Positions 17,063 to 63,892 of a DNA stretch of 64,000 nucleotides are shown here, piece by piece. The DNA lies in assembly GCA_020723665.1 (NCBI GenBank), contig DYIL01000002.1:40188-104187 (forward strand), in the 5' to 3' direction. Position 1 is the stretch's first letter. Each line of letters opens with the position of its first letter. The notes beneath the pieces were generated by a model. It saw nothing but the letters and a program-made list of their open reading frames with translations. It had not been told where the DNA came from and searched no databases. The translations under genes were made by a program, and so were the position numbers. This DNA comes from Methyloversatilis universalis (GTDB lineage: Bacteria > Pseudomonadota > Gammaproteobacteria > Methylococcales > Methylococcaceae).

Positions 17063-17136
17063 GGAATAGACAACTCCTCGGATTGATAAACAGTGGAACT
17101 GCATTTCATTATTCGGATGGACAGAGCCTGTCCCCA

Positions 17137-33525: not shown

Positions 33526-33526
33526 A

Positions 33527-36346: not shown

Positions 36347-36364
36347 GTTCTGACCAGTGTTGCG

Positions 36365-40169: not shown

Positions 40170-40808
40170 TCATGCCGTATCCGTACGGTTCAAGCAGCCC
40201 TGCAGGAATAATTTGACCGCTTGCCGGGTCCAACGCTCGACTTCGTCCTCGGTTGGCGCGCTTTCCAAGCCCAGCTGTTGCCGCTGAAAGCGCTCGCCGC
40301 GGAGTGCGTTGACAAACTGTCCGGCTAAAAATGCCGGATCCATGGCGACCACATGACCTGCTTGCTGATGCATGCCGAAAAACTTCGCGAGCCGATCCAG
40401 CGTCCGCTGCGGTCCCTGCTCATAAAATTCGGCCGCCAATTCCGGAAATTGGTGCGCCTCGGCGATCAGTTGCGCACGCAGGCGAATGATCTCCGGGCGG
40501 GAAATCCGAAACAGGAAATGCTTTCCGAACGCGACCAAGGTTTCTTCCAAGGGTTTGGCGAGGGCCTGGTCCAACGGCAGCGTAGCCACCAACAGATCGC
40601 TGTAGTGGCGGATGACGGCTCCGAACAGCCCCCCTTTACCGCCGAAATATCGGTAAATGGTGCGGAGAGACACGCGAGCTTCGCGAGCGATCGCTTCCAG
40701 GCTTACGTTGCCGTAGCCTCTTTCCACGAAAAGCCGAAGCGCATGATCGAGAAGTTGATCCCGACGGATCTCAATTTCGCCCTTCCTGGGGCGGCCTATT
40801 CGATTCAT
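40170..40808 (-). CDS. TetR/AcrR-family transcriptional repressor
   Basis: 212 aa. N-terminal HTH LFVERGYGNVSLEAIAREARVSLRTIYRYFGGK. Divergent from the RND efflux operon. Confidence 0.88.
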   Translation of the reverse strand: MNRIGRPRKGEIEIRRDQLLDHALRLFVERGYGNVSLEAIAREARVSLRTIYRYFGGKGGLFGAVIRHYSDLLVATLPLDQALAKPLEETLVAFGKHFLFRISRPEIIRLRAQLIAEAHQFPELAAEFYEQGPQRTLDRLAKFFGMHQQAGHVVAMDPAFLAGQFVNALRGERFQRQQLGLESAPTEDEVERWTRQAVKLFLQGCLNRTDTA

Positions 40809-40833
40809 TATCGTTACTATTTTTGGAGATAGA

Positions 40834-40862
40834 TTGACATAGCCGTCCAGTTTCGCAAGAAT
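40834..40862 (+). promoter_or_regulatory. Candidate sigma70 promoter of the efflux operon
   Basis: TTGACA (40834-39), 17-nt spacer, then AAGAAT (40857-62). Flanked by the inverted repeat TATCGTT (40809) / AACGATA (40868). Confidence 0.35.
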
Positions 40863-41006
40863 AATGAAACGATATCTTACCTTTTCTTTTCATGTCGTGT
40901 CGCCATCCCTGCCGTTCCCGCTTGATACGCCAAACTTATGCCAGCTTCGTTTGCAGCCGCTAAAGCCCACCGTTTGTTACATCAAACTTTCAGTCCTCGA
41001 TTTCTG

Positions 41007-42191: not shown

Positions 42192-42205
42192 ACACGCCTC
42201 CGAAC

Positions 42206-45200
42206 ATGACGAGATTCACTCATTTTTTTATCGACCGTCCTATCTTCGCGTCGGTACTTTCCATTCTCATCGTTCTGGTTGGCGGACTCGCGGCATTTTC
42301 CCTACCCATCGCACAATACCCCGAGATCGCGCCGCCCACCATTCAGGTCAGCGCAACCTATCCGGGCGCGAATGCCCAAGTGTTGGCCGAGACAGTGGCA
42401 ACACCTATCGAGCAGGAGATCAACGGCGTCGAAGACATGTTGTACATGTCATCCCAGTCCACCAACGATGGGGTCATGCGCCTAACCATCACGTTCAAGC
42501 CGGGAACCGATCTCGATAAGTCGCAAGTGCTGGTACAGAACCGGCTGGCTCTGGCCGAACCGAAACTGCCGGAAGAAGTGCGACGACAGGGCATCACCGT
42601 GCGCAAGCGCAGCCCCGACTTGAGCCTGGTGGTGAACTTGATCTCGCCCGACGGACGCTACGATTCCGTTTATCTCAGCAATTACGCTCTGCTGCAGATC
42701 CGGGATGTGCTCGCCCGGCTGCCGGGCGTCGGCGATATCGTCCTGTTCGGCGAACGAGAATACAGCATGAGGGTTTGGCTCGACCCGGAAAAAGTCGCGG
42801 CCCGTAACCTGACCGCCACCGATGTCGTTCAGGCAATCCGCGAACAAAACATCCAGGTCGCGGCCGGCGTGGTGGGGCAGCCGCCCACACCGGGCGGGAT
42901 CGATTTCCAGCTCACCGTGACCACCATGGGACGCTTGATGGACGAAGCGCAATTCGGTGACATCGTCATCAAGACCGGAAAGGACGGGCAGGTGACGCGA
43001 CTCAAGGACGTCGCGAGAATCGAACTCGGAGCCAAGGACTACAGCTCGTCGCTCAAACTCGACGGTACACCCACGGTCGGCATTGCCATCTTCCAGTTGC
43101 CGGGCTCCAACGCGATCGAGACCAAGGAGGCGGTGGTGGAAGCCATGGAAAAGCTCAAACTGCGCTTCCCCGAAGGGCTCGACTATCTCCTGGTCTATGA
43201 CACGGTGGTGTTCGTGACGCAGTCTATCGCCGCGGTCGTCCAGACACTCTTCGAGGCGATCCTGCTGGTCGTGGTCGTGGTATTGGTGTTCCTGCAGAAC
43301 TGGCGAGCCACGATCATCCCGTTGCTGGCGGTACCCGTATCCCTCGTCGGCACCTTCGCGGTCATGGCTGCCATGGGATTGTCGCTGAACACACTTTCCC
43401 TGTTCGGACTGGTCCTCGCCATCGGCATCGTCGTGGACGACGCCATCGTCGTGGTCGAAAACGTGGAACGAAACATGGCGCTCGGCCTCAAGGCCCGGGA
43501 AGCGACCCGCCGAGCCATGGAAGAAGTCGTCGGTCCGATTATCGCGACATCCCTGGTATTGGTCGCGGTTTTCGTGCCGACGGCCTTCATCACCGGCGTA
43601 TCCGGTGCGTTTTACAAGCAGTTTGCCCTGACCATCTCCGTATCCACGATTATTTCCACGTTCAATTCGCTCACGCTCAGTCCGGCGCTCTGCGCCGTCC
43701 TTCTGGACCGTGCGCACGGGGAGAAAGATTGGTTCACGCGTTTGACCGATCGCCTCTTCGGATGGTTTTTCCGCGGTTTCAATCGCTTCTTCAGCGCCTT
43801 CAGCGACGGCTACTCGCGGCTGGTAGGCCGGCTGATTCGCATCACGGGCGTGATCTTGGTGCTTTACGTAGGGCTCAACAGCCTCAATTTTCTCGCTTTC
43901 GCCAAAGTGCCGACCGGATTCATCCCGCAGCAGGATCAGGGCTATCTCATTCTCTACGCGCAGCTCCCGGACGCTGCTTCGCTGGAACGTACCGACGCGG
44001 TCATCGAGCGCGCCAGCAAAATCATCCTCGAGACCGAGGGCGTCGCTCACGTGAACGCCTATGCCGGATTCTCGCTTCTGGCCGGAGGCCGCCAGTCGAA
44101 CGCCGGCACCATGTTCGCCAGTCTCACGCCCTTCGAAGATCGCGCGGGGCATCCGGAACTCTCGGCGGACTCGATCATCGCGAAACTGCGTGAAAATCTC
44201 TCCGTGATCGAGGACGCGCAGATCGCCGTGTTTTCGCCGCCGCCGGTCCGCGGCCTCAGCTCGGTGGGCGGCTTCAAGCTACAGATCCAGGACCGCGCCA
44301 ACGTCGGCCCCGAGGAATTACAGCGTGTTACGAACGAGATCATCGCCAAAGGCAACGAGCAGCCCGGGCTGGTTGGTCTATTCACAACCTTCCGGGCCAG
44401 CGCGCCACAGATCTATGTCGACATCAACCGAACCCAGGCCAAGTCGTACGACGTGCCGCTGAGCAACGTCTTCCAAACGCTGCAGATTTATCTCGGTTCG
44501 CTGTACGTCAACGATTTCAATCGATTCGGCAGAATCTATCAGGTTACGGCACAGGCCGACTCGATGTTCAGGCTCAGACCCTCGGATATCGCCAATCTCA
44601 AGACTCGCAACCTGAACGGCGACATGGTCCCTCTCGGCACCTTGGTCGATGTTCGCGAGACCGTCGGCCCCGATAAAGTGACGCATTACAACCTGTATCC
44701 CTCGGCCGAGATCAACGGCAGCACCCTGGCCGGCGTCAGTTCGGGCCAGGCCATCGCCCTCATGGAACAGGTGGCGAACCGGGAGCTTCCGCTCACCATG
44801 GGCTATGAATGGACCGAACTCAGCCTGCAGGAGATCCTGTCCGGCAATACCGCCGTGATCATATTTCCCCTGAGCGTGATCTTCGTATTTCTCGCACTAG
44901 CCGCACAGTATGAGAGCTGGTCCTTGCCGTTCGCCGTCATTCTCATCGTTCCCACATGTCTCTTGAGCTCGATGGCGGGCGTTTGGCTTCGCGGCATGGA
45001 CAACAATATCTTCACCCAAGTCGGCTTTATCGTACTGGTCGGACTGGCCAGCAAGAATGCGATTCTGATCGTCGAGTTCGCCCGCAATCTTCAAGATGCC
45101 GGCAGAGATCGTTATCAAGCCGCCATCGAAGCGGCGCGGCTGCGCCTTCGACCGATTTTGATGACCTCCTTCGCGTTCATTCTCGGCGTTTTCCCGCTGG

Positions 45201-45403
45201 TCGTATCCACCGGTGCCGGCTCCGAAAACCGGCGAATACTGGGCACCGCCGTGTTCAGCGGCATGCTGGGCGTCACGTTCTTCGGCCTGCTGTTGACGCC
45301 GGTGTTTTATGTGGTCATACGGAAGTTGGTCGAACGCCGTCAGCGGTCGTCTTCCGAGCCGACCGACGCCGAGATTCACTCTACGCCGAATAACAATCCC
45401 TGA
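42206..45403 (+). CDS. RND multidrug efflux permease (HAE1, AcrB/MexB family)
   Basis: 1065 aa: MTRFTHFFIDRPIFASVLSILIVLVGG...AQYPEIAPPTIQVSATYPGA..., 12 TM topology with two large loops. Confidence 0.95.
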   Translation: MTRFTHFFIDRPIFASVLSILIVLVGGLAAFSLPIAQYPEIAPPTIQVSATYPGANAQVLAETVATPIEQEINGVEDMLYMSSQSTNDGVMRLTITFKPGTDLDKSQVLVQNRLALAEPKLPEEVRRQGITVRKRSPDLSLVVNLISPDGRYDSVYLSNYALLQIRDVLARLPGVGDIVLFGEREYSMRVWLDPEKVAARNLTATDVVQAIREQNIQVAAGVVGQPPTPGGIDFQLTVTTMGRLMDEAQFGDIVIKTGKDGQVTRLKDVARIELGAKDYSSSLKLDGTPTVGIAIFQLPGSNAIETKEAVVEAMEKLKLRFPEGLDYLLVYDTVVFVTQSIAAVVQTLFEAILLVVVVVLVFLQNWRATIIPLLAVPVSLVGTFAVMAAMGLSLNTLSLFGLVLAIGIVVDDAIVVVENVERNMALGLKAREATRRAMEEVVGPIIATSLVLVAVFVPTAFITGVSGAFYKQFALTISVSTIISTFNSLTLSPALCAVLLDRAHGEKDWFTRLTDRLFGWFFRGFNRFFSAFSDGYSRLVGRLIRITGVILVLYVGLNSLNFLAFAKVPTGFIPQQDQGYLILYAQLPDAASLERTDAVIERASKIILETEGVAHVNAYAGFSLLAGGRQSNAGTMFASLTPFEDRAGHPELSADSIIAKLRENLSVIEDAQIAVFSPPPVRGLSSVGGFKLQIQDRANVGPEELQRVTNEIIAKGNEQPGLVGLFTTFRASAPQIYVDINRTQAKSYDVPLSNVFQTLQIYLGSLYVNDFNRFGRIYQVTAQADSMFRLRPSDIANLKTRNLNGDMVPLGTLVDVRETVGPDKVTHYNLYPSAEINGSTLAGVSSGQAIALMEQVANRELPLTMGYEWTELSLQEILSGNTAVIIFPLSVIFVFLALAAQYESWSLPFAVILIVPTCLLSSMAGVWLRGMDNNIFTQVGFIVLVGLASKNAILIVEFARNLQDAGRDRYQAAIEAARLRLRPILMTSFAFILGVFPLVVSTGAGSENRRILGTAVFSGMLGVTFFGLLLTPVFYVVIRKLVERRQRSSSEPTDAEIHSTPNNNP

Positions 45404-45414
45404 TTCGCGAAGCT

Positions 45415-46992
45415 ATGTCCAAACTTTGCACGGCCAATCGACCCGGGCGATCCGCGACAGGCGATCGCTCTTCGGGCACATCCTTGCGCAGCGCATTCAC
45501 GATCGCGCTCTCCGCCCTGATTTCCGCCTGTGCGGTCGGTCCTGACTATCAGCAACCGGACGCCGCGCCGGGCGCACAGTTCGCCCATACCGTCCTTCCC
45601 GAATTCAAACGGGACGGAATCGAGGTGGCCTGGTGGAAGCAATTCGACGATCCGGTGCTGTCGGAACTCATTGACCGAGCGGTGAGCAATAACCGGGATC
45701 TCAAGGCGGCCGAAGCGAATCTCCGAGTCGCGCGCGCACTCTACCTCGAAGCCGGGCTGGATCTGCTCCCCACGATTACCAGCCATGCCAATTACACGAC
45801 GCAAAAGCGAAGCTTCGACGCCATGAACCGCCGGACCTTTGCGCCGCGCGAGCTCGAGCTCTTCAACGTCGGCTTCGACGCCTTTTGGGAAGTGGATTTC
45901 TTCGGCCGGATACGGCGCAGCATCGAAGCGCGCGACGCTGAAGTCGAGGCCGCGGAGGCCGACCTGCGCGACCTGTTGGTCAGCGTCATTTCGGAGGTGG
46001 CGCGCAATTACTTCGAATTGCGGGGCTTGCAGAATCAACTGGACGTCGCCCAGAAAAACGCCGACAACCAGGCCGCTACCCTGGAATTGACCCAAGCCAG
46101 GCTGGAAGCCGGCCGCGGCACGGAACTGGATACCTCGCGCGCCAAAGCCCAACTCGACTCCACGCTGGCGACGATTCCGCCCATCCAAACCCGGATTCGG
46201 GAGAGCATCCATCGCCTCGGCGTGCTGATCGGTCAGCTTCCGGACAGCCTATCCAGCCAGCTGTCCGCGCCCGCGCCGATACCCAAGATTCCCGAAACGA
46301 TCCAGATCGGCTCGCCCCCCGATCTCCTGCGGCGCCGCCCGGATATCCGCGTTGCCGAGCGCAATCTGGCTGCGGCGACCGCCCGAATCGGTGTCGCCAC
46401 GGCAGATCTTTTCCCCAGGGTAACCTTCAACGGCACCATCGCCTTTGAGTCCCGCACGCTTGCCGGGCTCGGCGCCTCCGGTACCGAAGCTTTCTCGGCG
46501 GGACCACGAATCTCCTGGGCGTTTCTCGATCTCGGACGCGTCCGAGCCCGCATCAAGGCGGCGGACGCCAGCGCGGAAGCCAGGCTTGCAAATTATGAAC
46601 AAACCGTGCTGACGGCGCTTGAAGAAACCGAAAACGCACTGGTGAATTACAATCGAGAGCGCGCCCGCCGCGCATTATTGAGTTCGGCGGCAACTGCGAG
46701 CGAGCGCGCTCATCAGCTTGCACACCTTCGTTTTGAAGACGGTATCACGGATTTCCTCACCGTACTGGACGCCGAACGCCGCCTGCTCCTGGATCAGGAG
46801 CAATTGGCACAAAGCGAAACCGCCACGGCGACCGCTCTGATCGCCGTCTATAAGGCGCTGGGCGGCGGCTGGGAGGTTTTTGCACCGGACGAGAATGCCG
46901 TCGCGTCGATTCCGACGTCGACGCAACAGGCATCTTCTCTTGGCGTCGGTCGGACCGCAGTTCCGGACATGCCCGCACGAGCCACCAAATGA
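45415..46992 (+). CDS. Outer-membrane efflux factor lipoprotein (NodT/OprM family)
   Basis: 525 aa. Lipobox ALISAC followed by AVGPDYQQPD. Two OEP repeats. Confidence 0.9.
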   Translation: MSKLCTANRPGRSATGDRSSGTSLRSAFTIALSALISACAVGPDYQQPDAAPGAQFAHTVLPEFKRDGIEVAWWKQFDDPVLSELIDRAVSNNRDLKAAEANLRVARALYLEAGLDLLPTITSHANYTTQKRSFDAMNRRTFAPRELELFNVGFDAFWEVDFFGRIRRSIEARDAEVEAAEADLRDLLVSVISEVARNYFELRGLQNQLDVAQKNADNQAATLELTQARLEAGRGTELDTSRAKAQLDSTLATIPPIQTRIRESIHRLGVLIGQLPDSLSSQLSAPAPIPKIPETIQIGSPPDLLRRRPDIRVAERNLAAATARIGVATADLFPRVTFNGTIAFESRTLAGLGASGTEAFSAGPRISWAFLDLGRVRARIKAADASAEARLANYEQTVLTALEETENALVNYNRERARRALLSSAATASERAHQLAHLRFEDGITDFLTVLDAERRLLLDQEQLAQSETATATALIAVYKALGGGWEVFAPDENAVASIPTSTQQASSLGVGRTAVPDMPARATK

Positions 46993-52426: not shown

Positions 52427-52464
52427 ATGGTAAGCTTACCATCGCAGAAATTTTGATTTATAGT
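52427..52464 (+). promoter_or_regulatory. Perfect 16-bp palindrome overlapping a candidate sigma70 promoter upstream of the DAB-like operon
   Basis: ATGGTAAGCTTACCAT (52427-52442). TTACCA (52436-41), 17-nt spacer, TATAGT (52459-64). About 90 nt upstream of the first ATG (52554). Confidence 0.45.
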
Positions 52465-52553: not shown

Positions 52554-54023
52554 ATGTATATCCTCAGTCTGATTCTTTGGACACCCATTGTCGGTGCGTT
52601 GGTCATTTTGGCTTTACCGGCGCAGCAAATCCGCTCGATTCGAGCGGTCGCCTTGGGCTCATCGGGCGTCGTTCTGATGTTGACCGTTTGGCTTTTGTTT
52701 CAGTTCGACACATCCTCCTCGGCGATCCAATTCCCCGAGAGCCAGCTCTGGAACGCGGAACTCGGAAGTTATTACGCCCTCGGGGTCGACGGCTTTTCCC
52801 TGCCCATGGTCGTGTTGTCGGCCCTCCTTTGTCTAGTGGCGATGCTGGCCTCGGAGAGCGTGAGCACGCGGGTCAAGGGATACCATTTCTGGCTGCTCGC
52901 CCTCGAGTTCGGCATGATCGGCGTCTTTCTCGCCCAGGATTGGGCTTTGTTCTACGTGTTTTGGGAGTTGACGCTGATCCCGCTCTTTTTCCTTATCGAC
53001 CAGTGGGGCGGCAAGCGCAAACATACGGCTAGCCTCAATTTCGTTCTGTACACCATGGGTGGATCGGTGTTCATGCTGGTGAGCCTGTTGATGATTTTCA
53101 CCGCGTCCTCCGAACACTCCACGACGATGGGGTCTATGCTGGCCACTGCACGGAGCCTGCCCAAGGATCAACAAATCTGGATTTTCCTGGGCTTCCTGAT
53201 CGGATTCGGCGTAAAAATGCCGGTATTTCCCATCCACGGCTGGCTGCCGCTCGCACACGTGGAAGCGCCAAGTCCTGTGAGTATTCTGCTGTCCGGCGCG
53301 CTTCTCAAAATGGGCGCCTATGGCCTGCTCAAAGCAACCGGCATGTTGCCCGAAGCCGCTCTGGCGCTTCAGCCCCTGCTCGCCGGCCTAGCCCTGGTCA
53401 GCCTCGTGTACGGAGCGTTGCTGGCCTGGCGGCAGACCGATCTCAAGGCCATGATCGCCTATTCCTCCATTAGTCACATGGGCGTCGTGCTGATCGGCAT
53501 TGCGGCACTCAATCAAGCCGGATTGCTGGGTGCCGTGTTGCAGATGACCGCCCACGGTCTGATTGCCGGCGCGCTGTTCCTATTGATCGGTCTTCTCTAC
53601 GAACGCACCCACACCCGGGAAATCTCGGACTACAGTTCCCTGGTGCAAGTGACTCCGCGCTTCGCCTTCTTTACGACCCTGGCCCTGCTCGCGTCTATGG
53701 GATTGCCGGGCTCGGCGGGTTTCGTGGCGGAACTTCATGCCATCATCGGCGGCTTTCAGAGTTTCGGATGGATCATGCTCTTTGCGAGTCTCGGCGTGCT
53801 CATAGGCGCCTCCTACGCCATCCGGACCGCCGCCAGGCTGTTTACGGGTCCGATGCGGCCGGAAATGCAAAATGTCCACGATCTGCGCAGCCACGAGCTT
53901 GTTGCCGCCGGAGTTTTGGCGGCAGGCATCATGGCACTAGGCCTCATGCCGGGTCCGATGGTGTCGTTGACGGACGCCTCCGTCAATCAACTCAGTATGG
54001 TTTTCAATGAAAAGAATTTCTGA
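52554..54023 (+). CDS. NuoM/NdhD-like proton-antiporter subunit (PF00361-type), first gene of the DAB-like operon
   Basis: 489 aa, about 14 TM segments. Carries FYVFWELTLIPLFFLI and HGWLPLAHVEAPSPVSILLSGALLKMGAYG (NuoM signature). Confidence 0.85.
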   Translation: MYILSLILWTPIVGALVILALPAQQIRSIRAVALGSSGVVLMLTVWLLFQFDTSSSAIQFPESQLWNAELGSYYALGVDGFSLPMVVLSALLCLVAMLASESVSTRVKGYHFWLLALEFGMIGVFLAQDWALFYVFWELTLIPLFFLIDQWGGKRKHTASLNFVLYTMGGSVFMLVSLLMIFTASSEHSTTMGSMLATARSLPKDQQIWIFLGFLIGFGVKMPVFPIHGWLPLAHVEAPSPVSILLSGALLKMGAYGLLKATGMLPEAALALQPLLAGLALVSLVYGALLAWRQTDLKAMIAYSSISHMGVVLIGIAALNQAGLLGAVLQMTAHGLIAGALFLLIGLLYERTHTREISDYSSLVQVTPRFAFFTTLALLASMGLPGSAGFVAELHAIIGGFQSFGWIMLFASLGVLIGASYAIRTAARLFTGPMRPEMQNVHDLRSHELVAAGVLAAGIMALGLMPGPMVSLTDASVNQLSMVFNEKNF

Positions 54024-57000
54024 GGAGCCTAGCGTGCTATCGCCCAAATCGAAAGCTTCGAAGCCCGACGTCCGCCGGCGGTTGCAGGAGGCGGTCGATC
54101 ACCTCGATCATGTCTTGCCGGGACAGGCGCCGATCCTGAACTTCGTGCATCACAATACGCTGCACGGTTTTCAGCACCTGCCGTTCCGAGAGGCTCTGGA
54201 AGCCGTCGAGCAACTGACCGGCATCAGGGGCTATCTGCCCGATGAAGAATTCCGGAAGTTCTACGCCCAAGGCCGCATTCTCGATGAGGATCTGGCCGCC
54301 GCCTTCGCCGAGGCACCGCAACTCAAGGGCGACGAAGCACTGCTTCGAATCGGCGATCGAACGATCCTTAGGAGGGATGTCCATCGCATCGCCATGGTCT
54401 ACGGCGTGGATGCCGTGACGCCGAGCCAGTTGAACTGGCTAATCGAGGAAATGGGGGTGCTCGACCGGTTTCAAAGCGATGTCCCGCCCGATGCACGTCG
54501 CCGCCTCATGGACTCGGTCAAACGGGTGGCGGGAAGCGCGGAGGCTCTACAGGAAAGCGCTCTAATCCGCGACTTGTGGAATGCCACCTTACGAGTTCTC
54601 GGATTGGACCAGACCGCACCACACCCCGAAGACCTGACCGATCTCACGGTCCGTCAAGCCGAAAGCATGTTGAACGAGTCCGGACTATTGTCCGCGGGCG
54701 CTAAGTCAAGTACCACTTTCGCGCGGCAAAAAATGAAAGCGGAGGCCCGTGCGCTCTCCGAGAGACTCTTCGCCGACGTCGGCCACGGCATTTCGTTGCG
54801 CGGTCTGCTCCTTGCGTTGACCGGGCGGGATGTGCTCGACATGGTCCGACCGATACTGATCCGCTTTTGTGCCTCCCATTTGGACGAGGGGCTGGCGGCC
54901 TGGCATGCAGCCGACCGACGGGAAGGACTGTATTCAGCATGGCGTCGCTCGGCGCCTTACGATTTCTCGCTCGGTCTCAGCGATTTTCCGGATTGGCAGG
55001 AAGTCGTGTCGGCTTTGCCGGAACAGGCCGTCGATGCGGTTCATACGGAACTGATCCGGATGGGACTTCCGGAAGACCGCTGGGAAACGTATTTGGAGCG
55101 GATTGCTCTGGAACTCCCCGGCTGGTCGGGCATCATCAACTGGCGGCAGCATCATCCCGATTACGAGGCCAATCGGGAAGCGCCTGCCTCTCTCATGGAT
55201 TATCTCGCCGTTCGATTGGTCCTGGACCGGATCGTGATCGAAGGACTTTGCCGAGAAATCTGGGACATCTCCGGTACTTGGCCGTCACTGCGCGCCTATT
55301 TCGAACGGAACCCGTCCGAATTCCTCGTGCGCCACGCACTGTTCGAGGGCGGTCTGCCCGAGTACCTGGCGGATGCCGCGCAGCAGCTGATCGCTGAGTC
55401 ACGCCCCGGAAGCTTCGATCGCGACCGTTGGTGGTCTGTAGCAGACATGATCTCGACGTGGAAGCACAGTTCACTGGCGGAAAAACCCCAACGGCTGACC
55501 ATTTACAACAGCGGGTGGCGCTTGTTCCGTTTGGCTCAGCACTTGGGCCTTTCGAGTCATGACATTGCTTCGCTTTCTTTACAGTCCTGCGAAGCCCTCG
55601 TCGCCGCGCTGAGCGAATTGTCCTCATCCGATCGGGGCCATCTCTGGCTCACCGCCTATGAGCGCCGCTATCGAGAAGAACTGTTCAACGCCCTCGCCAA
55701 CAACCGAGGCCGTGGTCGCTGGGCTAAGCGGGACGACCGCCCGCAAGCGCAAGTCATCTTCTGCATCGACGACCGCGAGGAAGGCATTCGACGCCATCTC
55801 GAGGAATTGAACCCGCAGATCGAAACTTTGGGCGCCGCCGGCTTCTTCGGTGTACCGATCAACTGGCGAGCTCTCGACGACGAAAAGGCCACTCCCCTGT
55901 GTCCTGTCGTGGTCACGCCCGTCAACGAGGTGCGCGAAGTCGCACGCCCCGGCCAGGACGATCGCCTTGCCGAACATGATCGGCGCTTGAGCCTTCGTCA
56001 GCGGATCGGAGCGCTGTTCAACCAGGGGATTCGGCGCAATCTGGTTTCTTCTCAGATCTTGATCGATCTGCTGGCACCGGGCGTATTGCTCCCGCTGATC
56101 GGTAAAGTGTTTTTCCCGGCCCGGCAAACCGCTCTCGTTCAACGCGTAGATGCTCTCTTCGTTCCCGAGGTGCCCACCGAACTGGTCATTACGGCGCCAA
56201 ACGATAGCGCTCCTGCGAGCGTGGAACATCCGCGCCTCGGCTTTACCACCTCGGAACAGGCTGACCGAGTCGCGGCATTCTTGCGCGCCACCGGCTTGAC
56301 CTATGGCTTTGCGCCGTTGGTGGTTCTCATGGGACACGGATCGATCAGCCAGAACAACCCGCATCTCGCCGCCTACGACTGCGGCGCGTGCAGCGGCCGT
56401 CACGGAGGACCCAACGCGCGGGCTTTCGCCGCCATGGCCAACCGTCCCGAAGTCCGCCGTTTGCTCGCTGAAAAAGGCATCAACGTCCCGGACGATACCT
56501 GGTTCATCGGCGCGGAACACAATACCTGCAACGAGGACATTCTTTGGTTCGACCTGACGGATCTCCCGCCGGCTGCGCGCCCTGCGTTCGGCAAGCTCAA
56601 CAGCGATCTCGATGCCGCACGACGCCTTTCGGCCCACGAGCGTTGCCGGCGGCTCGCCTCCGCCCCGCGCAATCCGACGCCTGACACGGCGCTCGCTCAT
56701 ATTGCCGAGCGTGCCACCGATTTCAGCCAAGCTCGTCCCGAACTCGGACACGCCACCAATGCTGCCGCATTCGTCGGACGGCGGTCCTTCAGTCAAGGTG
56801 TGTTCTTCGACCGCCGGGTGTTTTTGATTTCCTACGATCCGACGCAGGATCCTTTCGGCAACGTACTTGAAAACGTTTTGCTGGCCGTGGGTCCCGTCGG
56901 GGCCGGTATCAATCTCGAGTATTACTTCTCCACCGTGAACAACGAGCGTTTCGGCTGTGGCACCAAGGTTCCCCATAACGTGACCGGACTTTTCGGCGTC

Positions 57001-57357
57001 ATGGAAGGTGCTGCCAGCGATCTCAGGACCGGACTTCCGAGGCAGATGATCGAAATCCACGAAGCTATGCGTCTGCAAATCGTCGTGGAGCACAAAACCG
57101 AAGTCCTGACTGCGATCTACGAGCGTCAACCATCATTACAGGAGCTGATCGGCAACGGCTGGGTGCTGCTGTCCGCTATCGATCCGGAGACCGGCGAGAT
57201 TTCCATGTTCGTGCCAGGCCGCGGATTCGTCGCTTGGAACCGGGAGATTCGTCCGCTGCCCGTGGTCGAACGTTCCCCCGACTGGTATGCCGGGCATACC
57301 GAGCCGGTGCCTCCCGCGCTGATTCAACAACCGTCTTCGGGAGGTGTTCATGTTTGA
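54007..57357 (+). CDS. dabA: DabA-like (DUF2309/UPF0753) inorganic-carbon pump hydration subunit
   Basis: 1116 aa. N-terminus has [14 protein letters not shown]. Zn-site pattern is FCIDDRE (C586, D588) and [22 protein letters not shown] (H777, C792). An alternative start is GTG 54034 behind GAGGAG. Confidence 0.85.
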   Translation: [1116 protein letters not shown]

Positions 57358-58906
57358 TTGGATCGTGCCGCTGGTGCCGGGCTTGCCGATTTTGGCGGCC
57401 CTGGGCATAGGCGTTGGCATCGTTTCCGGACGTATCGCCGGAGAACCGGGAGAACGGCCCACCGCGATGATAGCGGTGGGGGCAACGTTGATCTCTTTTC
57501 TATTGACCATCGCGGTGTTCTGGTGCCGCCAGGCAGAACTGATTTCCGAGCAGCTTGTGCTCGGGACCTGGCTGACCAGTGGCGATTACCTCGTCAACCT
57601 GAGCTTTGCACTAGGAAACCTGAGTCTCGGCTTGTCGTCGCTGTTCGCGTTGTTCTCGCTGATGGTGGCCAAATTTTCGGTGAATTACATGCACCGCGAA
57701 GCCGGTTTCCATCGTTTTTTCCTGGTCCTTTCCCTGTTCGCCGGTGCCATGCAGTTGCTGGTATTGGGCGGGAATGCCGTATTCACCTTTATCGGCTGGG
57801 AATTGGCAGGGGTGTGCTCCTATCTCCTCATCGCCTATGCCTATGACCGGCCGGTGGCCTCCGCCAATGCGACCTATGCATTCGTAACCAATCGGATCGG
57901 CGATGCCGGTTTCACCGGTGGAATCTTCCTGGCCTTCGCCTGGACCGGGGGCGTCGAATGGCCGCAAATTTCGCAAGGCGCTACAACACTGGACAGCTCT
58001 CAAGCCGGTCTGATCGCGATCTGCTTCTTATTGGCGGCCGCCGCCAAGTCGGCCCAGGTGCCCCTTGCGCCGTGGGTGGCCCGCGCTATGGAAGGACCGA
58101 CGCCGTCCAGCGCCATTTTCTACGGAGCCGTGATGATCCATGCCGGCGTTTTCCTGGTATTGAGGCTCCAATCGGTGTTCGAAGCGGCACCCGCGGCCAT
58201 GGCGATCATGGCGGCCATGGGGCTGGTAACGGCACTTTACGGCTTTGTGTGCGGATTGACGCAGACCGACGTCAAGTCGGCGCTTATTTTTTCCACCACC
58301 GCACAGGTCGGCCTGATGTTCTTGGCTTGCGGTCTAGGCTGGTGGCAGTTGGCAGCCTGGCATTTGGCTGCCCATACCGTACTACGCGGATACCAGTTCC
58401 TGACCGCGCCGGCGCTAATACATCGCATCATCGGCCATCCGCCGCGGCCGGTGCCGGCCTTCGCCGGCCGCTCGCACTGGCTTTATACGGCCTCATTGCA
58501 GCGGTTTTGGCTGGAACAGTTCGGCCATCAGGCCCTTGTCAAGCCGATTGCTCGCGTCGCCGCAGATTTGAACGTTTTCGACCGCCGGGTCGTGGAGGAA
58601 ATCGTCGGCCTGCCCGCACCTGCCATGCGGGGACTCTCCGCCCTGGCCGAACGGGAGGAACATCATCTCGGCGCCGGTTATCGTACCGACGGACGCCGGG
58701 TCGGCGGCCTGCCCGGAATCGTGACCGATCTCTTCGCTTCCGCCTTCCACTGGTTCGAGGAGCGCCTGGTCCTGCAAGGCATCGGTATGGATCTCGTGAC
58801 GCTCGGGCGCCGCTTCGGCATGCGGCTCAATCGCCTGGAATCCATCTTGGCCCAACCGCGCTATCTGATTCTTTTCGTCTTTTTCACTCTGCTAGCCACC
58901 GTGTAA
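57350..58906 (+). CDS. dabB: DabB-like NuoL/NdhF-type antiporter subunit
   Basis: About 519 aa. Carries IGWELAGVCSYLLIAYAYDRP and NRIGDAGF (NuoL-type), and APWVARAMEGPTPSSAIFYGAVMIHAG. ATG 57350 follows GGGAGG, and its 5' end overlaps the last 8 nt of dabA (stop included). The track start is GTG 57344. Confidence 0.85.
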   Translation: MFDWIVPLVPGLPILAALGIGVGIVSGRIAGEPGERPTAMIAVGATLISFLLTIAVFWCRQAELISEQLVLGTWLTSGDYLVNLSFALGNLSLGLSSLFALFSLMVAKFSVNYMHREAGFHRFFLVLSLFAGAMQLLVLGGNAVFTFIGWELAGVCSYLLIAYAYDRPVASANATYAFVTNRIGDAGFTGGIFLAFAWTGGVEWPQISQGATTLDSSQAGLIAICFLLAAAAKSAQVPLAPWVARAMEGPTPSSAIFYGAVMIHAGVFLVLRLQSVFEAAPAAMAIMAAMGLVTALYGFVCGLTQTDVKSALIFSTTAQVGLMFLACGLGWWQLAAWHLAAHTVLRGYQFLTAPALIHRIIGHPPRPVPAFAGRSHWLYTASLQRFWLEQFGHQALVKPIARVAADLNVFDRRVVEEIVGLPAPAMRGLSALAEREEHHLGAGYRTDGRRVGGLPGIVTDLFASAFHWFEERLVLQGIGMDLVTLGRRFGMRLNRLESILAQPRYLILFVFFTLLATV

Positions 58907-58912
58907 GAACCT

Positions 58913-60439
58913 ATGGTCGCTGAAATCAACTGGGCGACGCAGTCCGCCTTTCCTATCCTCAGCACGATGATCTTTCTGCCCTTGATGGCGATGGGCGCTG
59001 CTTATTTCGCCGAATCGCAGCGGCGCGCCTTTATCATCGGGCTGGTCGGCTCGGGTCTAGAACTCGCCCTGACGGTTTATCTCCTGATAACCTTCGACTC
59101 CAGCACCACCCATTTACAATTCGTGGAGGACCTGGCACTTCTGCCTTTCCTCCATTACCACTTGGGCGTCGACGGCTTGAGCGTACTCTTCGTTTTCGTT
59201 ACGGCGCTCTTGAGCTTCCTGCTCATGCTCTACGGGGAAATCACGCCCGAGCGCCAGTCGCCGGGGCTGTATGTCGCCAGCCTGTTCGGGTTCCAGAGTG
59301 TTCTTATCGCACTCTTCTTTACCGTCGATCTGCTTCAGTTTTGGATCCTGGCCTGTCTCGAGCTTGTACCGGCCTCGTTTATCCTGCGCCGCTGGAGCAC
59401 CGCTTCCGCGGATGCCCCCAGAGCCGTCCGGGTTCACATGCAGTTCATGCTGAGCGGTCTGGTAATGCTCTTTCTCGGCATTCTGGTTCTGGGCTGGAAT
59501 CATGCACGGGTCTCCGGCGAGTGGTCGTTCGCGCTCGGTGCGCTGCTCGAAACACTGCCTCCTCGCGGCGTTCAGTCCACGGCGTTCATACTGCTGTTCT
59601 ATGCCCTGGCGATCCGCATGGCCCAATTCCCATTTCATGCTTGGCTGCCCCAAGTCTCTCAACACGGAACACTGGCTACTATAGGTGTATTTATGGTGGG
59701 CGCTAAAGTGGGCATATACGGACTATTGCGCTTCGTGCTGCCGCTGCTGCCCGATGCGGTTAATGCCCTCAAGCCTGCCGTTATCGCCCTGGCTTTGGCG
59801 GGCCTGTTCTACGGAGCGCTGATGGCGCTGATGCAATTGAATCTGAGACGGCTTTTGGCCTTCGCGGCGGTCAGCCATACCGGCATGCTGGTGGTCGGCG
59901 TGTTCTGCCTGAATTCCGAAGGCTTGGCCGGCAGCTTGCTGCTTTCGGTGAACTTCAGCATTGCCGCGAGCGGCCTGCTGTTTGCGACAAGTTTGATGTT
60001 CAGGCGTGCCGGCAGCGCCTTGCTGCCGCGTCTCGGAGGACTGTTCGACCTCATGCCGTTGCTGGGCATCACGTTCCTGGTCTCCGCATTGAGCACCATG
60101 GCAATGCCCGGCACGCCCGGCTTCGATGCCGCCCACCTTCTTTTGGAAGGCTCGATCGAAGCCCATGATTGGGGCATTACCATTGCCGTGGCCACCGGCA
60201 ACGTTTTGGCAGCCGCGTTTCTGTTGTGGGCTTTCCAGCGCGCGTTTCTGGCACAACGCAAGACTGTATTACGGCGGCCGAAAACCCGGCTTACCGTTCC
60301 CGAGGCGACGCTGAACGGCGTGGTCTGTGCCGTCTTGTTGGGCGTCGGTTTCTATACTGAACCGTGGGTTCAGATCGTGAACGAATCCGTGGACGGATTG
60401 GCGCAGCGTTTTGAGCGCTTCGAAGAAAAAAAACATTGA
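58913..60439 (+). CDS. Divergent NuoM/N-like antiporter subunit (conserved charged motifs lost)
   Basis: 508 aa, polytopic. The homologous positions read FWILACLELVP and HAWLPQVSQHGTLATIGVFMVGAKVGIYG. Confidence 0.75.
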   Translation: MVAEINWATQSAFPILSTMIFLPLMAMGAAYFAESQRRAFIIGLVGSGLELALTVYLLITFDSSTTHLQFVEDLALLPFLHYHLGVDGLSVLFVFVTALLSFLLMLYGEITPERQSPGLYVASLFGFQSVLIALFFTVDLLQFWILACLELVPASFILRRWSTASADAPRAVRVHMQFMLSGLVMLFLGILVLGWNHARVSGEWSFALGALLETLPPRGVQSTAFILLFYALAIRMAQFPFHAWLPQVSQHGTLATIGVFMVGAKVGIYGLLRFVLPLLPDAVNALKPAVIALALAGLFYGALMALMQLNLRRLLAFAAVSHTGMLVVGVFCLNSEGLAGSLLLSVNFSIAASGLLFATSLMFRRAGSALLPRLGGLFDLMPLLGITFLVSALSTMAMPGTPGFDAAHLLLEGSIEAHDWGITIAVATGNVLAAAFLLWAFQRAFLAQRKTVLRRPKTRLTVPEATLNGVVCAVLLGVGFYTEPWVQIVNESVDGLAQRFERFEEKKH

Positions 60440-60484
60440 GTTCGCATAAATAGACTTGTCGGCTTTGGCCATCCGGAGACAACA

Positions 60485-62044
60485 TTGACTACCGTTGATT
60501 TTCCGATTCTGACCGTTCTGATATTCCTTCCGCTAGCGGCGGCCGGTTTGTTGCTTTTTCTTCCGAATCCGGCATCGGCACGGCGGTTCGCTCTCGCGGC
60601 CTCACTCGCGGAGTTGCTGCTGTCCTTCGCTCTGCTCGGCCTTTTCGATTTCGGCTCCTCGAAATTGCAACTCATCGAGCGGGCTGTCTGGATACCGAGT
60701 CTCAACGTCTTTTACACCGTCGGCGTGGACGGTTTTTCGATTCTGTTTCCGCCGCTCACGGCACTTCTGACATCGGCCGTGATTGCAGCGTCGTGGACTC
60801 AGGTTCAAAGCCAGGTCAGGCTTTATCTCGCCCTCACGTTCGTCTTGGAAAGCGCCACACTCGGCGTGTTCTGCGCACTCGATCTGGCGCTGTTCTTCCT
60901 ATTCTGGGAACTGACGCTCATCCCCATTTTCTTCCTGGTAAGCCTTTGGGGAATCGGCCCGCAACGGCGTTATGCCGCGAGCAAATACACGCTCTTCATG
61001 CTGGCGGGCGGCGTTCCGTTGCTGTTCGCCATCATCCTCCTGGCGCTAAATCACGCTGAGCAGATCGGAATGTCCGCTCCGCGCGGGCTTTCCTTCGACT
61101 ACCTGACGCTGCTTCACGTGCCGGTTTCCGAAGAGATGCGGACGGCGGTATTTCTGCTCCTTTTTCTCGGGTTCGCGGTCAAGGTGCCACTATTCCCGTT
61201 TCACACTTGGCTGCCGACGATCGCGATGGAAGGGCCGGCGGGAGTCTCGGCTCTGATTACCGGACTCAAGCTCGGGCTTTACGGTCTCATGCGATTCGCC
61301 ATCCCGTTGGTTCCCGATGCCGCCGGCGAAAACATCTGGATTTTGACGGTCCTGGGTACTATCGGCGTATTGTACGGCGCTCTCATCGCTCTTAAGCAAA
61401 CCAATTTGCGGCGTTTGTTGGCCTATTCCAGCATCAGCCACGCCGGCTTCGTGGTTATCGGCCTCGCCACGTTGAACCTCCAGGGCGTGCAAGGTGCGCT
61501 ATTTCAACTGATCAATTTTACGGTCGTGTCCGGCGGCATCTTTCTGTTAGCCGGGTTTCTCCACCACCGCCTGGGGTCGACCGAACTTTCCAATCTGGGC
61601 GGCTTGGCGCGCTCGATGCCTTTGTTCACGGCCTTTTTCTTCCTTTTTGGCATTGCTGCCATGGGTGTGCCCGGCACCAACGGCTTTGCCGCCGAGCATT
61701 TGATCATCGTCGGTGCATTCAAGGCCCACGCCGGTGCCGGTCTTGCCGCGTTGTTCGGCGTGATTTTGGGAGCCGCGTACTTCCTGGGCTTCTTTCAGCG
61801 GGCTTTCTGGGGGCCGTTAAAGCTGGCTACGATCCGTACTGCTTCCGATCTGCGTCCGCGGGAATCGGCTCTGGCCGTGATACTGATCGCTTTGGTCTTC
61901 TTGGGAGGACTCGTGCCTGGCATTGTTACCAACGCCACCGCGCCGGCGGTCACCTCCTGGGTTGCGCGGATCGACGCGACTGCAGGTCCATCTGCTTATG
62001 CCGAGTTACCGGAAAAATTTCGAACCGCCAAGTTAAATCCTTAA
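60485..62044 (+). CDS. NuoM/NdhD-like antiporter subunit
   Basis: 519 aa, TTG start after GGAGA. Carries LFFLFWELTLIPIFFLV and HTWLPTIAMEGPAGVSALITGLKLGLYG. Confidence 0.85.
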   Translation: MTTVDFPILTVLIFLPLAAAGLLLFLPNPASARRFALAASLAELLLSFALLGLFDFGSSKLQLIERAVWIPSLNVFYTVGVDGFSILFPPLTALLTSAVIAASWTQVQSQVRLYLALTFVLESATLGVFCALDLALFFLFWELTLIPIFFLVSLWGIGPQRRYAASKYTLFMLAGGVPLLFAIILLALNHAEQIGMSAPRGLSFDYLTLLHVPVSEEMRTAVFLLLFLGFAVKVPLFPFHTWLPTIAMEGPAGVSALITGLKLGLYGLMRFAIPLVPDAAGENIWILTVLGTIGVLYGALIALKQTNLRRLLAYSSISHAGFVVIGLATLNLQGVQGALFQLINFTVVSGGIFLLAGFLHHRLGSTELSNLGGLARSMPLFTAFFFLFGIAAMGVPGTNGFAAEHLIIVGAFKAHAGAGLAALFGVILGAAYFLGFFQRAFWGPLKLATIRTASDLRPRESALAVILIALVFLGGLVPGIVTNATAPAVTSWVARIDATAGPSAYAELPEKFRTAKLNP

Positions 62045-62093: not shown

Positions 62094-62266
62094 CTGTTAT
62101 AGATTAATGCCGGGTCGGACGAGGCCTCCGCCAAAGTCCCATGATCGATCGTTCAATTCACCGATTCATCTGCGTTCTGTCGGAAAAAAGACAACGAACT
62201 TTTGTGGAACGGAATCCACGTGACTCGACCGATCGCACAACCTCACCGAATAATAGGGTTTAACTT

Positions 62267-63892
62267 ATGGTGCACAAACATATCGGTTATTACTTAAGTC
62301 ATCTGCGGAACGACGTTCCCGCAGGCATCGTCGTGTTCCTGGTCGCCCTGCCGCTGTGCCTGGGGATTGCGCTCGCCTCGGGCGCTCCACTATTTTCCGG
62401 CATCATCACCGGCATCGTCGGCGGCGTGGTGGTCGCTTGGGCCAGCGGCTCACAGCTGAGCGTGAGCGGCCCGGCGGCAGGGCTCACCGTGATCGTGCTC
62501 AATGCCATCGACAAGCTCGGCAGCTTTCAAGCCTTGCTGCTGAGCGTCGTCATCGCCGGTGGACTGCAACTGGTCCTGGGCTTCCTCCAGGCCGGGGTGA
62601 TCGGCGCCTACTTTCCGTCGGCCGTGATCAAAGGCATGCTCGCCGCCATCGGCCTGATCCTGATCCTCAAGCAGTTGCCGCACGCGGCCGGCTACGACGC
62701 CAATTTCGAGGGCGATGAGTCCTATCTCCAGGCCGACGGACACACCACGTTTTCCGAGATCGTCTATTCGCTCCAAGCGATTTCGCCGGGCGCGGTGATC
62801 GTGAGCCTGGTCGCGATCGGGATCATGCTGATGTGGGAGACCTCGCTGTTCAAGCGCAACGCCGTGCTCGGTCTCATTCCGGGGCCGTTGGTGGCGGTGC
62901 TCTGGGGGGTGGCGTACAACCTGTTTTCGGCGAAGTTCGCGCCCGCTTACGCGATCGCCCAGGAGCATCTGGTGAAGCTTCCGGAGATTCAGGGCGTGCA
63001 GGGCTTCTTTCAGCAGTTCACCTTCCCGGATTTCACGCAGTGGACCAATCCCGAGGTGTACACGGTGGCCGTCACCCTCGCCATCATCGCGAGCTTGGAG
63101 ACGCTCTTGAGCCTGGAGGCGGTGGACAAGATCGACCCCTTGAAGCGGGTCGCCCCGACCAATCGTGAATTGAAGGCGCAGGGCCTTGGCAATCTGATCG
63201 CCGGTGCCATCGGCGGGCTGCCGATGACGGCGGTGATCGTGCGCAGTTCCGCCAATGTGAACGCCGGCGGGCGCACCAAGATGGCGTGTTTCGTTCATGG
63301 CGTCCTGCTGCTGTTGAGTGTGATGTTCATCAACCAGTATTTGAACCTGATTCCGTTGGCCTGCCTGGCGGCGATCCTGCTCTTGACCGGCTACAAGCTG
63401 GCCAAGCCGAAGCTGTTCAAGGAGATGTACACCAAAGGGGCCAGCCAGATCGTGCCGTTCGTGGTCACCATCGTGGCGATCCTCGCGACCGACCTCTTGA
63501 AGGGCATTGCCGTCGGTATGGTGATCGGTCTGTATTACGTCATCCGGACCAACTTCCATGCCTCGATCACCTTGACCCAGCACGGCAACAACTATCTCTT
63601 GCGGTTGCACAAGGACGTGTCTTTCTTGAACAAGGCGCTCCTGCGACGCTATCTCGACAGCGTCGAGGAAAACGGTTATGTCATCATCGATGCGAGCCGG
63701 GCGCAGTTCATCGACCAGGATATCCTTGAGACCATCCACGACTTCGTGGCGGCTGCTTCCGACGACAACATCACCGTGGAACTTAAAAACCTCAACGGAA
63801 AACCCCAAAAAGCCAAAAAGCCCGCTTCCGCCGATAAACAACTCACTCTAGACGGAGAACATTATGAAACCACTCGAAAGGCTGCTGCTTGA
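62267..63892 (+). CDS. SulP-family anion (putative bicarbonate) transporter with C-terminal STAS domain
   Basis: 541 aa. Carries DVPAGIVVFLVALPLCLGIALASGAP and PMTAVIVRSSANVNAGGRTK (SulP core). STAS tail is YLLRLHKDVSFLNKALL. Confidence 0.88.
   Translation: MVHKHIGYYLSHLRNDVPAGIVVFLVALPLCLGIALASGAPLFSGIITGIVGGVVVAWASGSQLSVSGPAAGLTVIVLNAIDKLGSFQALLLSVVIAGGLQLVLGFLQAGVIGAYFPSAVIKGMLAAIGLILILKQLPHAAGYDANFEGDESYLQADGHTTFSEIVYSLQAISPGAVIVSLVAIGIMLMWETSLFKRNAVLGLIPGPLVAVLWGVAYNLFSAKFAPAYAIAQEHLVKLPEIQGVQGFFQQFTFPDFTQWTNPEVYTVAVTLAIIASLETLLSLEAVDKIDPLKRVAPTNRELKAQGLGNLIAGAIGGLPMTAVIVRSSANVNAGGRTKMACFVHGVLLLLSVMFINQYLNLIPLACLAAILLLTGYKLAKPKLFKEMYTKGASQIVPFVVTIVAILATDLLKGIAVGMVIGLYYVIRTNFHASITLTQHGNNYLLRLHKDVSFLNKALLRRYLDSVEENGYVIIDASRAQFIDQDILETIHDFVAAASDDNITVELKNLNGKPQKAKKPASADKQLTLDGEHYETTRKAAA

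Follow-up and report, generated by a model that had tools for sequence, protein, structure and literature searches.

The stretch of DNA analysed here (the window) comprises 64,000 nt of contig DYIL01000002.1 of Methyloversatilis universalis (assembly GCA_020723665.1, positions 40,188 to 104,187 of the forward strand). Between its positions 52554 and 62044 lies an operon of five genes, all on the + strand, in which a DabA/DabB pair related to the DAB inorganic-carbon pumps is accompanied by three genes for NuoM-type antiporter-like subunits, named M1, M2 and M3 below. The order is M1-DabA-DabB-M2-M3, and neighbouring genes overlap or nearly abut. The operon is a real, strongly conserved and uncharacterised five-subunit variant of DAB. 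Because of its gene content, conservation, residue patterns and a gene fusion, we also lean towards the view that the five products form one membrane complex, a DAB-type vectorial carbonic anhydrase that is driven by the proton-motive force (pmf) and has an enlarged membrane arm. All five open reading frames (ORFs), which an earlier note on this DNA had described as same-strand genes with overlaps or with gaps of at most 45 nt, were confirmed:

52554-54023, + strand: M1, 489 aa; PF00361 (229 bits) and TIGR01972, NuoM (504 bits)
54007-57357, + strand: DabA, 1116 aa; PF10070 (869 bits, E 3e-261)
57344/57350-58906, + strand: DabB, 520 aa (from GTG 57344) or 518 aa (from ATG 57350); PF00662 and PF00361
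58913-60439, + strand: M2, 508 aa; PF00361 (127 bits) and TIGR01972, NuoM (297 bits)
60485-62044, + strand: M3, 519 aa; PF00361 (225 bits) and TIGR01972, NuoM (465 bits)

Family matches are from Pfam and NCBIfam profile scans, in which the TIGR01972 (NuoM) cut-off is 264 bits. As the earlier note had anticipated, PF10070 was found on DabA and PF00361 on the other four proteins, three of which are NuoM by TIGR01972. The PF10070 match (cut-off 25 bits) covers all 747 positions of the profile (1-747) across residues 30-1053 of DabA. For DabB, PF00361 was matched at profile positions 5-225 only, and the top NCBIfam models are NuoL. The junctions measure -17 nt (M1/dabA), -14 nt, or -8 nt from ATG 57350 (dabA/dabB), +6 nt and +45 nt. 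The ATG at 57350 is favored as the start of dabB since close homologues are of 518 aa, and M3 starts at a TTG with a GGAGA ribosome-binding site. A 501-aa ORF antisense within dabA (window 55624-57129, - strand) is in all likelihood a shadow ORF, due to the GC-rich coding strand, rather than a gene.

No NuoA/H/J/K-like, peripheral-arm or small hydrophobic ORF was found in or beside the operon, which bears out the earlier note as to NuoA/H/J/K and peripheral-arm genes, and NuoA/H/J/K/N and a redox arm are absent from the 46-64 kb region of the window and from the Pfam-annotated loci L082-L087. Small subunits of the MrpB/C/E/F/G type were not found in or beside the operon, and the scores of NCBIfam Mrp models on its proteins are far under the cut-offs. 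A Cup-like (CupA/CupB) gene is absent at the locus, and DabB scored 165 bits against TIGR01960 (NdhF3 family), the cut-off of which is 589. By gene content, the operon is not complex I, Mrp or NDH-1MS.

Features of the five proteins

The zinc site of DabA comprises C586, D588, H777 and C792, at exactly the positions that the earlier note had given, and these ligands align to C351, D353, H524 and C539 of the solved DabA2 chain 9rd0_A (phmmer alignment, with residue correspondence counted by hand). Across 79 orthologues they do not vary except for a single D to E change; the PF10070 match and the aligned ligands, on which the earlier note had made its reading depend, both held. The AlphaFold2 (AF2) model of DabA (pLDDT 76.8) is all-helical to ~565, followed by two alpha/beta domains, with helices at 651-718. 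Its best Foldseek match is the carboxysomal beta-carbonic anhydrase (beta-CA) CsoSCA, with a probability of 0.99; DAB2 is not among the matches in the fold library used, which ends in April 2026 and predates the DAB2 release. The helical region before the first zinc ligand is ~235 residues longer than in DabA2 (C586 versus C351) and contains many invariant residues. The single hydrophobic segment of DabA, at 680-698, aligns to the finger region of DabA2 and is part of a hydrophobic helix-loop-helix 'finger' at ~651-718 (helices 651-679, 683-702 and 704-718), the conserved residues of which are R676, P691 and K700.

At the position of Leu658 of DabA2, the protein has His915, invariant in 80 of 80 sequences. 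Leu658 is strictly conserved in 150 homologues (PMC13144422); the corresponding residue is L825 in DabA1 of Thermocrinis albus, and Gln or His, stabilising the transition state, in canonical beta-CAs. That His915 might be unique to the five-gene form was considered and rejected, as the DabAs of two ordinary two-gene DABs adjacent to such operons (loci L059 and L040, see below) also have His; it sets DabA apart only from the DabA1 and DabA2 types with solved structures. Judging from these sequence differences, DabA probably departs from both solved DABs in the details of catalysis and coupling.

DabB finds its best PDB sequence matches in cyanobacterial NdhF1 (6hum_F, 202 bits over residues 2-367) and E. 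coli NuoL (175 bits), whereas DabB2 reaches only 116 bits. Its AF2 model (pLDDT 79, confident for the transmembrane (TM) helices TM1-11) leads Foldseek to NuoL/NdhF chains, with a core root-mean-square deviation of 2.2-3 Å over ~360 residues. TM1-11 are followed by ~140 aa of amphipathic helices and by one C-terminal TM helix (501-519), and hydropathy correspondingly reveals no membrane-like segment at ~362-500 and one at 501-519. Past TM11, the model has helices at 372-385, 390-421, 426-441, 456-478, 483-502 and 505-519. In 60 of 71 sequences (the window DabB and 70 orthologues), 164-180 aa follow R348, and E153, R184, D187, K235, H344 and R348 are invariant in the 70 orthologues. The possibility that the NuoL ion pairs E153/R184 and D187/K235 are special to the five-gene DabB was rejected, because the two-gene DabBs of L059 and L040 keep them too. 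When a profile of the DabB C-terminus was searched against 177,635 PDB sequences, the top two matches were to NdhF1 564-616 (E 0.04) and plant NdhF 656-698 (E 0.41), and both stretches belong to the lateral-helix region of L-type subunits; on the DabB side, it is the beginning of the amphipathic region that resembles them. We regard DabB as an L-type subunit that lacks TM12-14 and keeps the lateral element and its anchor. With ~90 helical residues between positions 390 and 502, the lateral element is long and might reach across more than one of the neighbouring subunits. The 11+1 TM helices would place the C-terminus of DabB on the same side as the N-terminus of a NuoM.

The three M subunits were aligned to E. 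coli NuoL, NuoM and NuoN (locus L081) and then across orthologues. The channel residues of M1 (E138/K221/K252/H308/H334/E393) correspond to E144/K234/K265/H322/H348/E407 of E. coli NuoM and are kept in 73-74 of 74 orthologues, and the M3 set, E142/K233/K262/H319/F345/E404 at the same six NuoM positions, is kept in 60-61 of 61, the single change being E to D at 404. In M2, E144 (TM5) is replaced by C148, K234 (TM7) by R235, H348 by F348 and E407 (TM12) by A407, while K265 (TM8) and H322 are matched by K265 and H322. Both acids are lost in all 59 M2 orthologues, which have A/V/L/F/C in TM5 and A/V/G in TM12; R235 and K265 are each present in 59 of 59, and H322 in 54 of 59. The M2 channel thus appears degenerate, with only the central Arg/Lys/His axis retained, leaving DabB, M1 and M3, at most, as apparently competent channels. 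The earlier note had envisaged one hydration subunit joined to four antiporter-like subunits, and whereas a DAB type with extra subunits stands, four working ones do not, M2 being without the TM5 Glu and the TM12 Glu/Lys. In a neighbour-joining tree for which 16 taxa were taken from each group, M1, M2 and M3 are each monophyletic and all fall on the NuoM and not the NuoN side, M2 being sister to M3 and M1 standing next to E. coli NuoM; there is no NuoN-type protein among the three groups. From the tree, M1, M2 and M3 appear to be old, specialised paralogues constituting three ancient orthologous groups, and not recent duplicates.

These residue patterns bear on the possibility that M1-M3 only stabilise or oligomerise DabAB, as proposed for DabC of DAB1, and leave the H+ to CO2 stoichiometry unchanged. 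The clear loss of channel residues from M2 would be in keeping with this, as would the precedent of DAB1, where DabC at the NuoM position is essential yet non-conducting (10.64898/2026.05.01.722082), and our own estimate that one H+ should suffice energetically. Nevertheless, the canonical channel residues of M1 (73-74/74) and M3 (60-61/61) are kept down to 24-47% identity, which would be difficult to account for unless proton transfer were under selection, and we consider a purely scaffolding role for the three subunits unlikely.

Conservation and surroundings of the operon

A scan of one genome per species yielded 305 relatives of this DabA, the best 80 loci of which were analysed (cited by locus number) by assigning six-frame ORFs to the five window proteins with phmmer. 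In this survey of neighbourhoods, which the earlier note had suggested as a check, the three extra M genes were found beside dabAB, in the order M1-DabA-DabB-M2-M3, in 57 of the 80 loci. Among the remaining 23, 14 are cut by a contig end, 4 have a DabB-M2 fusion and 5 are apparent exceptions (L031, L045, L054, L058 and L077), with frameshifts in L054. The median estimated junctions over the 57 loci are -19, -7, +7 and +5 nt. The hosts, among which are methanotrophs, ammonia oxidisers and sulfur-oxidising symbionts, include Methylococcaceae, Methylobacter, Methylomonas, Crenothrix, Nitrosospira, Nitrosomonas mobilis, Competibacteraceae, Sedimenticolaceae, Chromatiaceae and symbionts of tubeworms and lucinids. 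The M. gracile protein shares 86% identity with the window DabA. Independent gene calls with precomputed Pfam hits gave the same five Pfam architectures in Methylococcus capsulatus and Nitrosococcus oceani, and the M. capsulatus locus has cysS-gltX upstream, as in the window. Three distant M2 homologues (45-48% identity), among the most distant matches listed, were all found by contig look-up to lie in the same operon. Two records call for separate comment. L080 (JAIVTC010000400.1) is a 7.7-kb contig binned as 'Candidatus Bathyarchaeota archaeon' with a proteobacterial-type M1-DabA-DabB at 50% identity, and is probably misbinned; L001 (NZ_CP194902.1), a 5.3-Mb record of Methylocaldum sp. GT1BB, bears the title 'plasmid unnamed' but is probably a chromosome with a wrong label.

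In four separate metagenome-assembled genomes (MAGs) of Competibacteraceae/Contendobacter, dabB and the M2 gene form a single ORF of ~1089 codons, with the DabB match at 56-575 and the M2 match at 594-1086:

L004, 7578-10844: DabB-M2 fusion ORF
L005, 6568-9834: DabB-M2 fusion ORF
L010, 13206-16472: DabB-M2 fusion ORF
L011, 10981-14247: DabB-M2 fusion ORF

As Rosetta-stone evidence, the fusion suggests that the C-terminus of DabB abuts the N-terminus of M2, and it fits the topology of 11+1 TM helices. In Candidatus Competibacter phosphatis, M2 is seemingly separate (P0331, 505 aa). Between the fusion and M3 of L010 lie a PIN-domain gene (PF18475) and a GNAT acetyltransferase gene (16484-17681), a pair that looks like a toxin-antitoxin-type insertion within the operon, and gaps of 1.1-2.8 kb, similar to that of L010, are present in L004, L005 and L011. 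Since 57 of the 80 loci have the same gene order, junctions are short and DabB and M2 can be fused, it is supported that the five genes behave as one conserved unit. By phmmer assignment, extra ORFs assigned to M3 (L037, L038) or M1 (L057, L060) lie beside the operon, so that the operon may not always have exactly three M genes.

The five-gene operon has an ordinary two-gene DAB as its immediate neighbour in Nitrosomonas mobilis (L059, 18760-23238) and in a Methylococcaceae MAG (L040, 3184-7664), with a DabA of ~860 aa and a DabB of ~630 aa. The occurrence of both forms side by side argues that they are not redundant, and suggests two inorganic-carbon systems with different properties in these two organisms.

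A core nuo gene was never linked in the flanks of the 80 loci. This speaks to the possibility of a redox-coupled system like NDH-1MS, in which DabB and the M subunits would replace NuoL and NuoM on the complex I core of the host and electron transfer would drive hydration. One could point to the greater nearness of DabB to NdhF1 and NuoL (202 and 175 bits) than to the stand-alone DabB2 (116 bits), to its retention of the NuoL interface ion-pair residues E153/R184/D187/K235, and to the NuoM-specific TM12 Glu of M1 and M3, which in complex I faces NuoL; cyanobacterial NdhD3/NdhF3/CupA, moreover, dock on a shared NDH-1 core (background in 10.64898/2026.05.01.722082). The ion-pair residues are not diagnostic, however, since ordinary two-gene DabBs keep the same ones. 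Besides the lack of linked nuo genes, no NuoN-type subunit is encoded, all three M groups clustering with NuoM, DabB has a lateral region and anchor of its own, and DAB1 and DAB2 function in E. coli as stand-alone complexes (PMC13144422; 10.1101/476713). Coupling to a redox core is, in our judgement, improbable.

Two further features flank the operon:

62267-63892, + strand: SulP/STAS anion transporter gene, PF00916 (189 bits) plus STAS
52436..52464, + strand: sigma-70-like promoter candidate, TTACCA-17-TATAGT, 9/12 matches; weak evidence

The SulP/STAS gene, on which the earlier note was silent, starts 222 nt past M3 and has its own promoter-like site at 62225-62254. Its NCBIfam scores, 108 bits for BicA (cut-off 880) and 182 for DauA (cut-off 614), are far below both cut-offs. 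A SulP gene occurs within 10 kb in 26 of the 80 loci, on either side and either strand, and is absent from the M. capsulatus and N. oceani loci; it is thus a frequent but loosely linked neighbour and not a core part of the operon. Its frequent vicinity is one of the points in favor of there being two machines, i.e. a DabAB pump co-expressed with a separate cation/proton transporter made of M1, M2 and M3 that would, for example, export protons or exchange Na+ against an acid load. CO2 hydration and H+ entry acidify the cytoplasm, according to the DAB1 preprint (10.64898/2026.05.01.722082), and antiporter-like subunits exchange Na+/H+ in Mrp. However, the DabB-M2 fusion physically ties at least M2 to DabB, M1 is translationally coupled to dabA (17-nt overlap here, median -19 nt), and the small subunits of the MrpB/C/E/F/G type are lacking. 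M-type subunits of the Mrp and complex I families are not known to work alone. A division into two machines seems to us improbable, slightly more so than a redox-coupled complex.

Upstream of M1, a 260-nt gap separates the operon from the divergent gltX, with cysS also upstream. In promoter and terminator scans, the counts were at the level of chance, promoter-like sites in the region equalling the shuffle expectation, so that 52436..52464 is only a promoter candidate. No Rfam match was obtained anywhere in the window, the M1 leader included.

Elsewhere in the window is a methanol-oxidation cluster (23017-28359), comprising genes for a cytochrome c (23017-23523, - strand), a solute-binding-protein-like protein (23660-24559, - strand), a dehydrogenase dependent on pyrroloquinoline quinone (PQQ; 24620-26425, - strand) and a sensor kinase with a LapD/MoxY periplasmic domain (26818-28359, + strand). 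The suggestion of a C1-oxidising host was well founded: the organism is a Methylocaldum relative, with this PQQ methanol-dehydrogenase cluster in the window. There are also MlaE/MlaD-type genes at 32611-35442, an FTR1-family iron permease gene (35522-36703, - strand) adjoining a small cupredoxin-like gene, and, at 40170-46992, a TetR-family regulator divergent from an operon for RND-type efflux (membrane-fusion protein, AcrB-family pump and outer-membrane factor).

Proposed mechanism and its weighing

For the reading that we favor, a single DAB-type complex with an enlarged arm, we infer that the five proteins associate, as well as the order of the subunits, how many protons move and in which direction, and what the complex does physiologically. 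DabA would be a cytoplasmic, zinc-dependent beta-CA-like enzyme with one membrane-inserted finger that hydrates cytoplasmic CO2 to HCO3-. It would sit on DabB, the NuoL-like half-channel subunit (TM1-11), and DabB together with the finger of DabA would constitute the coupling channel, as in DAB1 and DAB2. The amphipathic C-terminal helices and terminal TM anchor of DabB would run along the neighbouring NuoM-type subunits and clamp them, with M2 placed directly beside DabB as a degenerate connector and M1 and M3 as the predicted working proton channels. Inward flow of H+ through DabB, M1 and M3 would then drive a conformational cycle that makes hydration one-way, and inorganic carbon would be trapped as bicarbonate for RuBisCO and other carboxylases. 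The extra channels may increase the number of H+ used per CO2, in line with the higher stoichiometry suggested in the earlier note, may benefit kinetics or affinity when pmf is low, or may carry off the catalytic proton. There is precedent in DabC of DAB1, which is located at the NuoM position beside DabB and is essential (10.64898/2026.05.01.722082), and in the pmf dependence of DAB2 (PMC13144422).

Several observations weigh against this proposal. By our own estimate, one H+ at normal pmf already covers a ~100-fold CO2-concentrating disequilibrium, so that extra channels are not obviously needed thermodynamically. Complex formation and subunit order are read from synteny and one fusion. The AF2 model of DabB has low confidence after residue 420, and the match of the DabB C-terminus to lateral helices is suggestive, of borderline significance and not detectable against E. 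coli NuoL, where DabB 363-520, in a local alignment, scored lower than the mean of the shuffles and profile scores were negative. Glu444 of the DabA2 finger, which is essential in DAB2, aligns to D687 of DabA, a position that is not conserved (D/A/N/L/T), and because of this and the lack of TM12-14 in DabB, the proton path must differ from that of DAB2. Finally, many hosts are not autotrophs (ribulose monophosphate pathway methanotrophs, Competibacter), so that the physiological role proposed is a tentative one.

The opposite direction of ion flow has also been suggested. In the original COGNAT proposal, which was made from the same neighbourhood data (PMC5700660) and predates the known function of DABs, an exergonic reaction of the soluble subunit would power an outward ion pump; the related MpsAB was first presented as a membrane-potential-generating system. 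But the beta-CA zinc site of DabA is intact and no other catalytic motif is found, near-equilibrium CO2 hydration yields too little energy for several ions, and characterised homologues spend pmf to accumulate bicarbonate (PMC13144422; 10.1101/476713). We give very little credence to outward pumping.

Going beyond a DAB with an enlarged arm, one may more tentatively regard the complex as a free-standing, redox-independent 'complex-I membrane arm', consisting of a truncated and clamped L subunit, a degenerate M connector and two active M channels, to which a carbonic anhydrase is attached as sole peripheral module. Laterally coupled inward proton channels would then power one chemical step, and DabC of DAB1 would be a shrunken remnant of an M2-like subunit. 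We find this conceivable, though short of probable. If true, the five-gene form would be an evolutionary link from DABs to the complex I/Mrp/NDH-1MS lineage and a minimal natural system for crosstalk among antiporter-like subunits.

It is debated how DABs and the cyanobacterial Cup complexes make carbonic-anhydrase chemistry one-directional, and likewise how energy is transmitted from one antiporter-like subunit of complex I to the next. A DAB with a multi-subunit arm, i.e. with two intact channels, a conserved dead channel and a lateral clamp, bears on both debates, and the operon provides internal points of comparison for stoichiometry, for lateral coupling and for what DabC-like subunits do. 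The hosts matter environmentally, as they include M. capsulatus and other methanotrophs, ammonia oxidisers such as Nitrosospira and Nitrosococcus, symbionts of tubeworms and clams, and Competibacter from wastewater. Current annotations of these genomes list the genes as stray "NADH-quinone oxidoreductase subunit L/M" and "DUF2309", and for this reason the carbon-acquisition capacity and the complex I gene counts of the hosts are probably misread.

Comparison with known systems

The gene neighbourhood itself has been noticed before. The COGNAT survey of 2017 described a 'clade C' with ybcC upstream of a nuoL homologue and extra COG1008 NuoM and COG0659 SulP genes, and speculated that more membrane subunits would move more ions (PMC5700660). 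The 2018 DAB preprint dropped "genes with divergent operon structure" from its DabB tree. The structural papers of 2026 describe DABs as A+B or A+B+C. The assumption in the earlier note that characterised DABs are only two-gene units was mistaken, since DAB1 is a DabA/B/C heterotrimer (10.64898/2026.05.01.722082). Its other statement, that its author was aware of no characterised multi-subunit DAB of this kind, holds insofar as our literature search brought up neither experiments nor structures for the five-gene form, although the neighbourhood had already been described by COGNAT; two Nitrosococcus oceani papers mention only other nuo clusters, or nothing relevant.

In general terms, the operon has what defines a DAB, namely a PF10070 protein, a predicted zinc site of the beta-CA type and an adjacent NuoL-like PF00361 partner with conserved residues of a putative proton path. 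Like DAB2 of Halothiobacillus neapolitanus (PDB 9rd0), it combines a PF10070 subunit that has C-x-D...H...C ligands and a hydrophobic finger (predicted here) with a NuoL-like PF00361 partner keeping the TM5, TM7 and TM11 residues. Unlike DAB2, which is a two-gene unit with a DabA of ~830 aa, it has five genes, three of the NuoM type being added. The proteins differ as well: DabA is of 1116 aa versus 827 aa for DabA2, has His915 instead of Leu658, and lacks a conserved counterpart of Glu444, with K700 and P691 in the finger, and DabB has 11+1 TM helices and a 140-aa amphipathic region, whereas DabB2 has 15 TM helices and a short lateral helix.

DAB1 (Thermocrinis albus, H. neapolitanus) is similar in having dabA upstream of dabB and a third membrane protein at the NuoM position, and DabC is non-conducting, as is predicted here for M2, the two being likened by description. 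However, DabC is small, half the size of a NuoM and without a Pfam match, and its gene lies between dabA and dabB (10.64898/2026.05.01.722082), whereas here dabA and dabB overlap with no small gene, and there are three full-length PF00361 partners, two of them with intact channel residues. The distance from the zinc-site Asp to the second zinc Cys is 204 residues here, 258 in T. albus and 186 in DabA2, and thus the long 'arm' of DAB1 appears to be absent.

With NDH-1MS and NDH-1MS' (NdhF3/NdhD3/CupA/CupS and NdhF4/NdhD4/CupB), the operon shares the arrangement of a CO2-hydrating peripheral protein on a pair of L-type and M-type subunits, and with it the logic of a vectorial carbonic anhydrase, and the best PDB sequence match of DabB is a cyanobacterial NdhF. 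It differs in having the beta-CA-like DabA and not CupA/B, no linked NDH-1 core genes, three M-type subunits versus one, and no indication of redox coupling. Compared with Mrp and the membrane arm of complex I (NuoL-NuoM-NuoN), it is without NuoA/H/J/K/N, MrpB/C/E/F/G and a redox module, its L-type subunit is without TM12-14, one M is degenerate, and the peripheral module is a carbonic anhydrase. The predicted chain of homologous antiporter-like subunits is nevertheless a common feature, as is, more suggestively, an L-type subunit with a lateral amphipathic helix and a terminal TM anchor, and M1 and M3 keep the residue set of complex I NuoM, including the TM12 Glu. New in the present analysis are the three specialised M orthologue groups, the dead channel of M2, the truncated and clamped DabB, the DabB-M2 fusion, His915 and the breadth of distribution.

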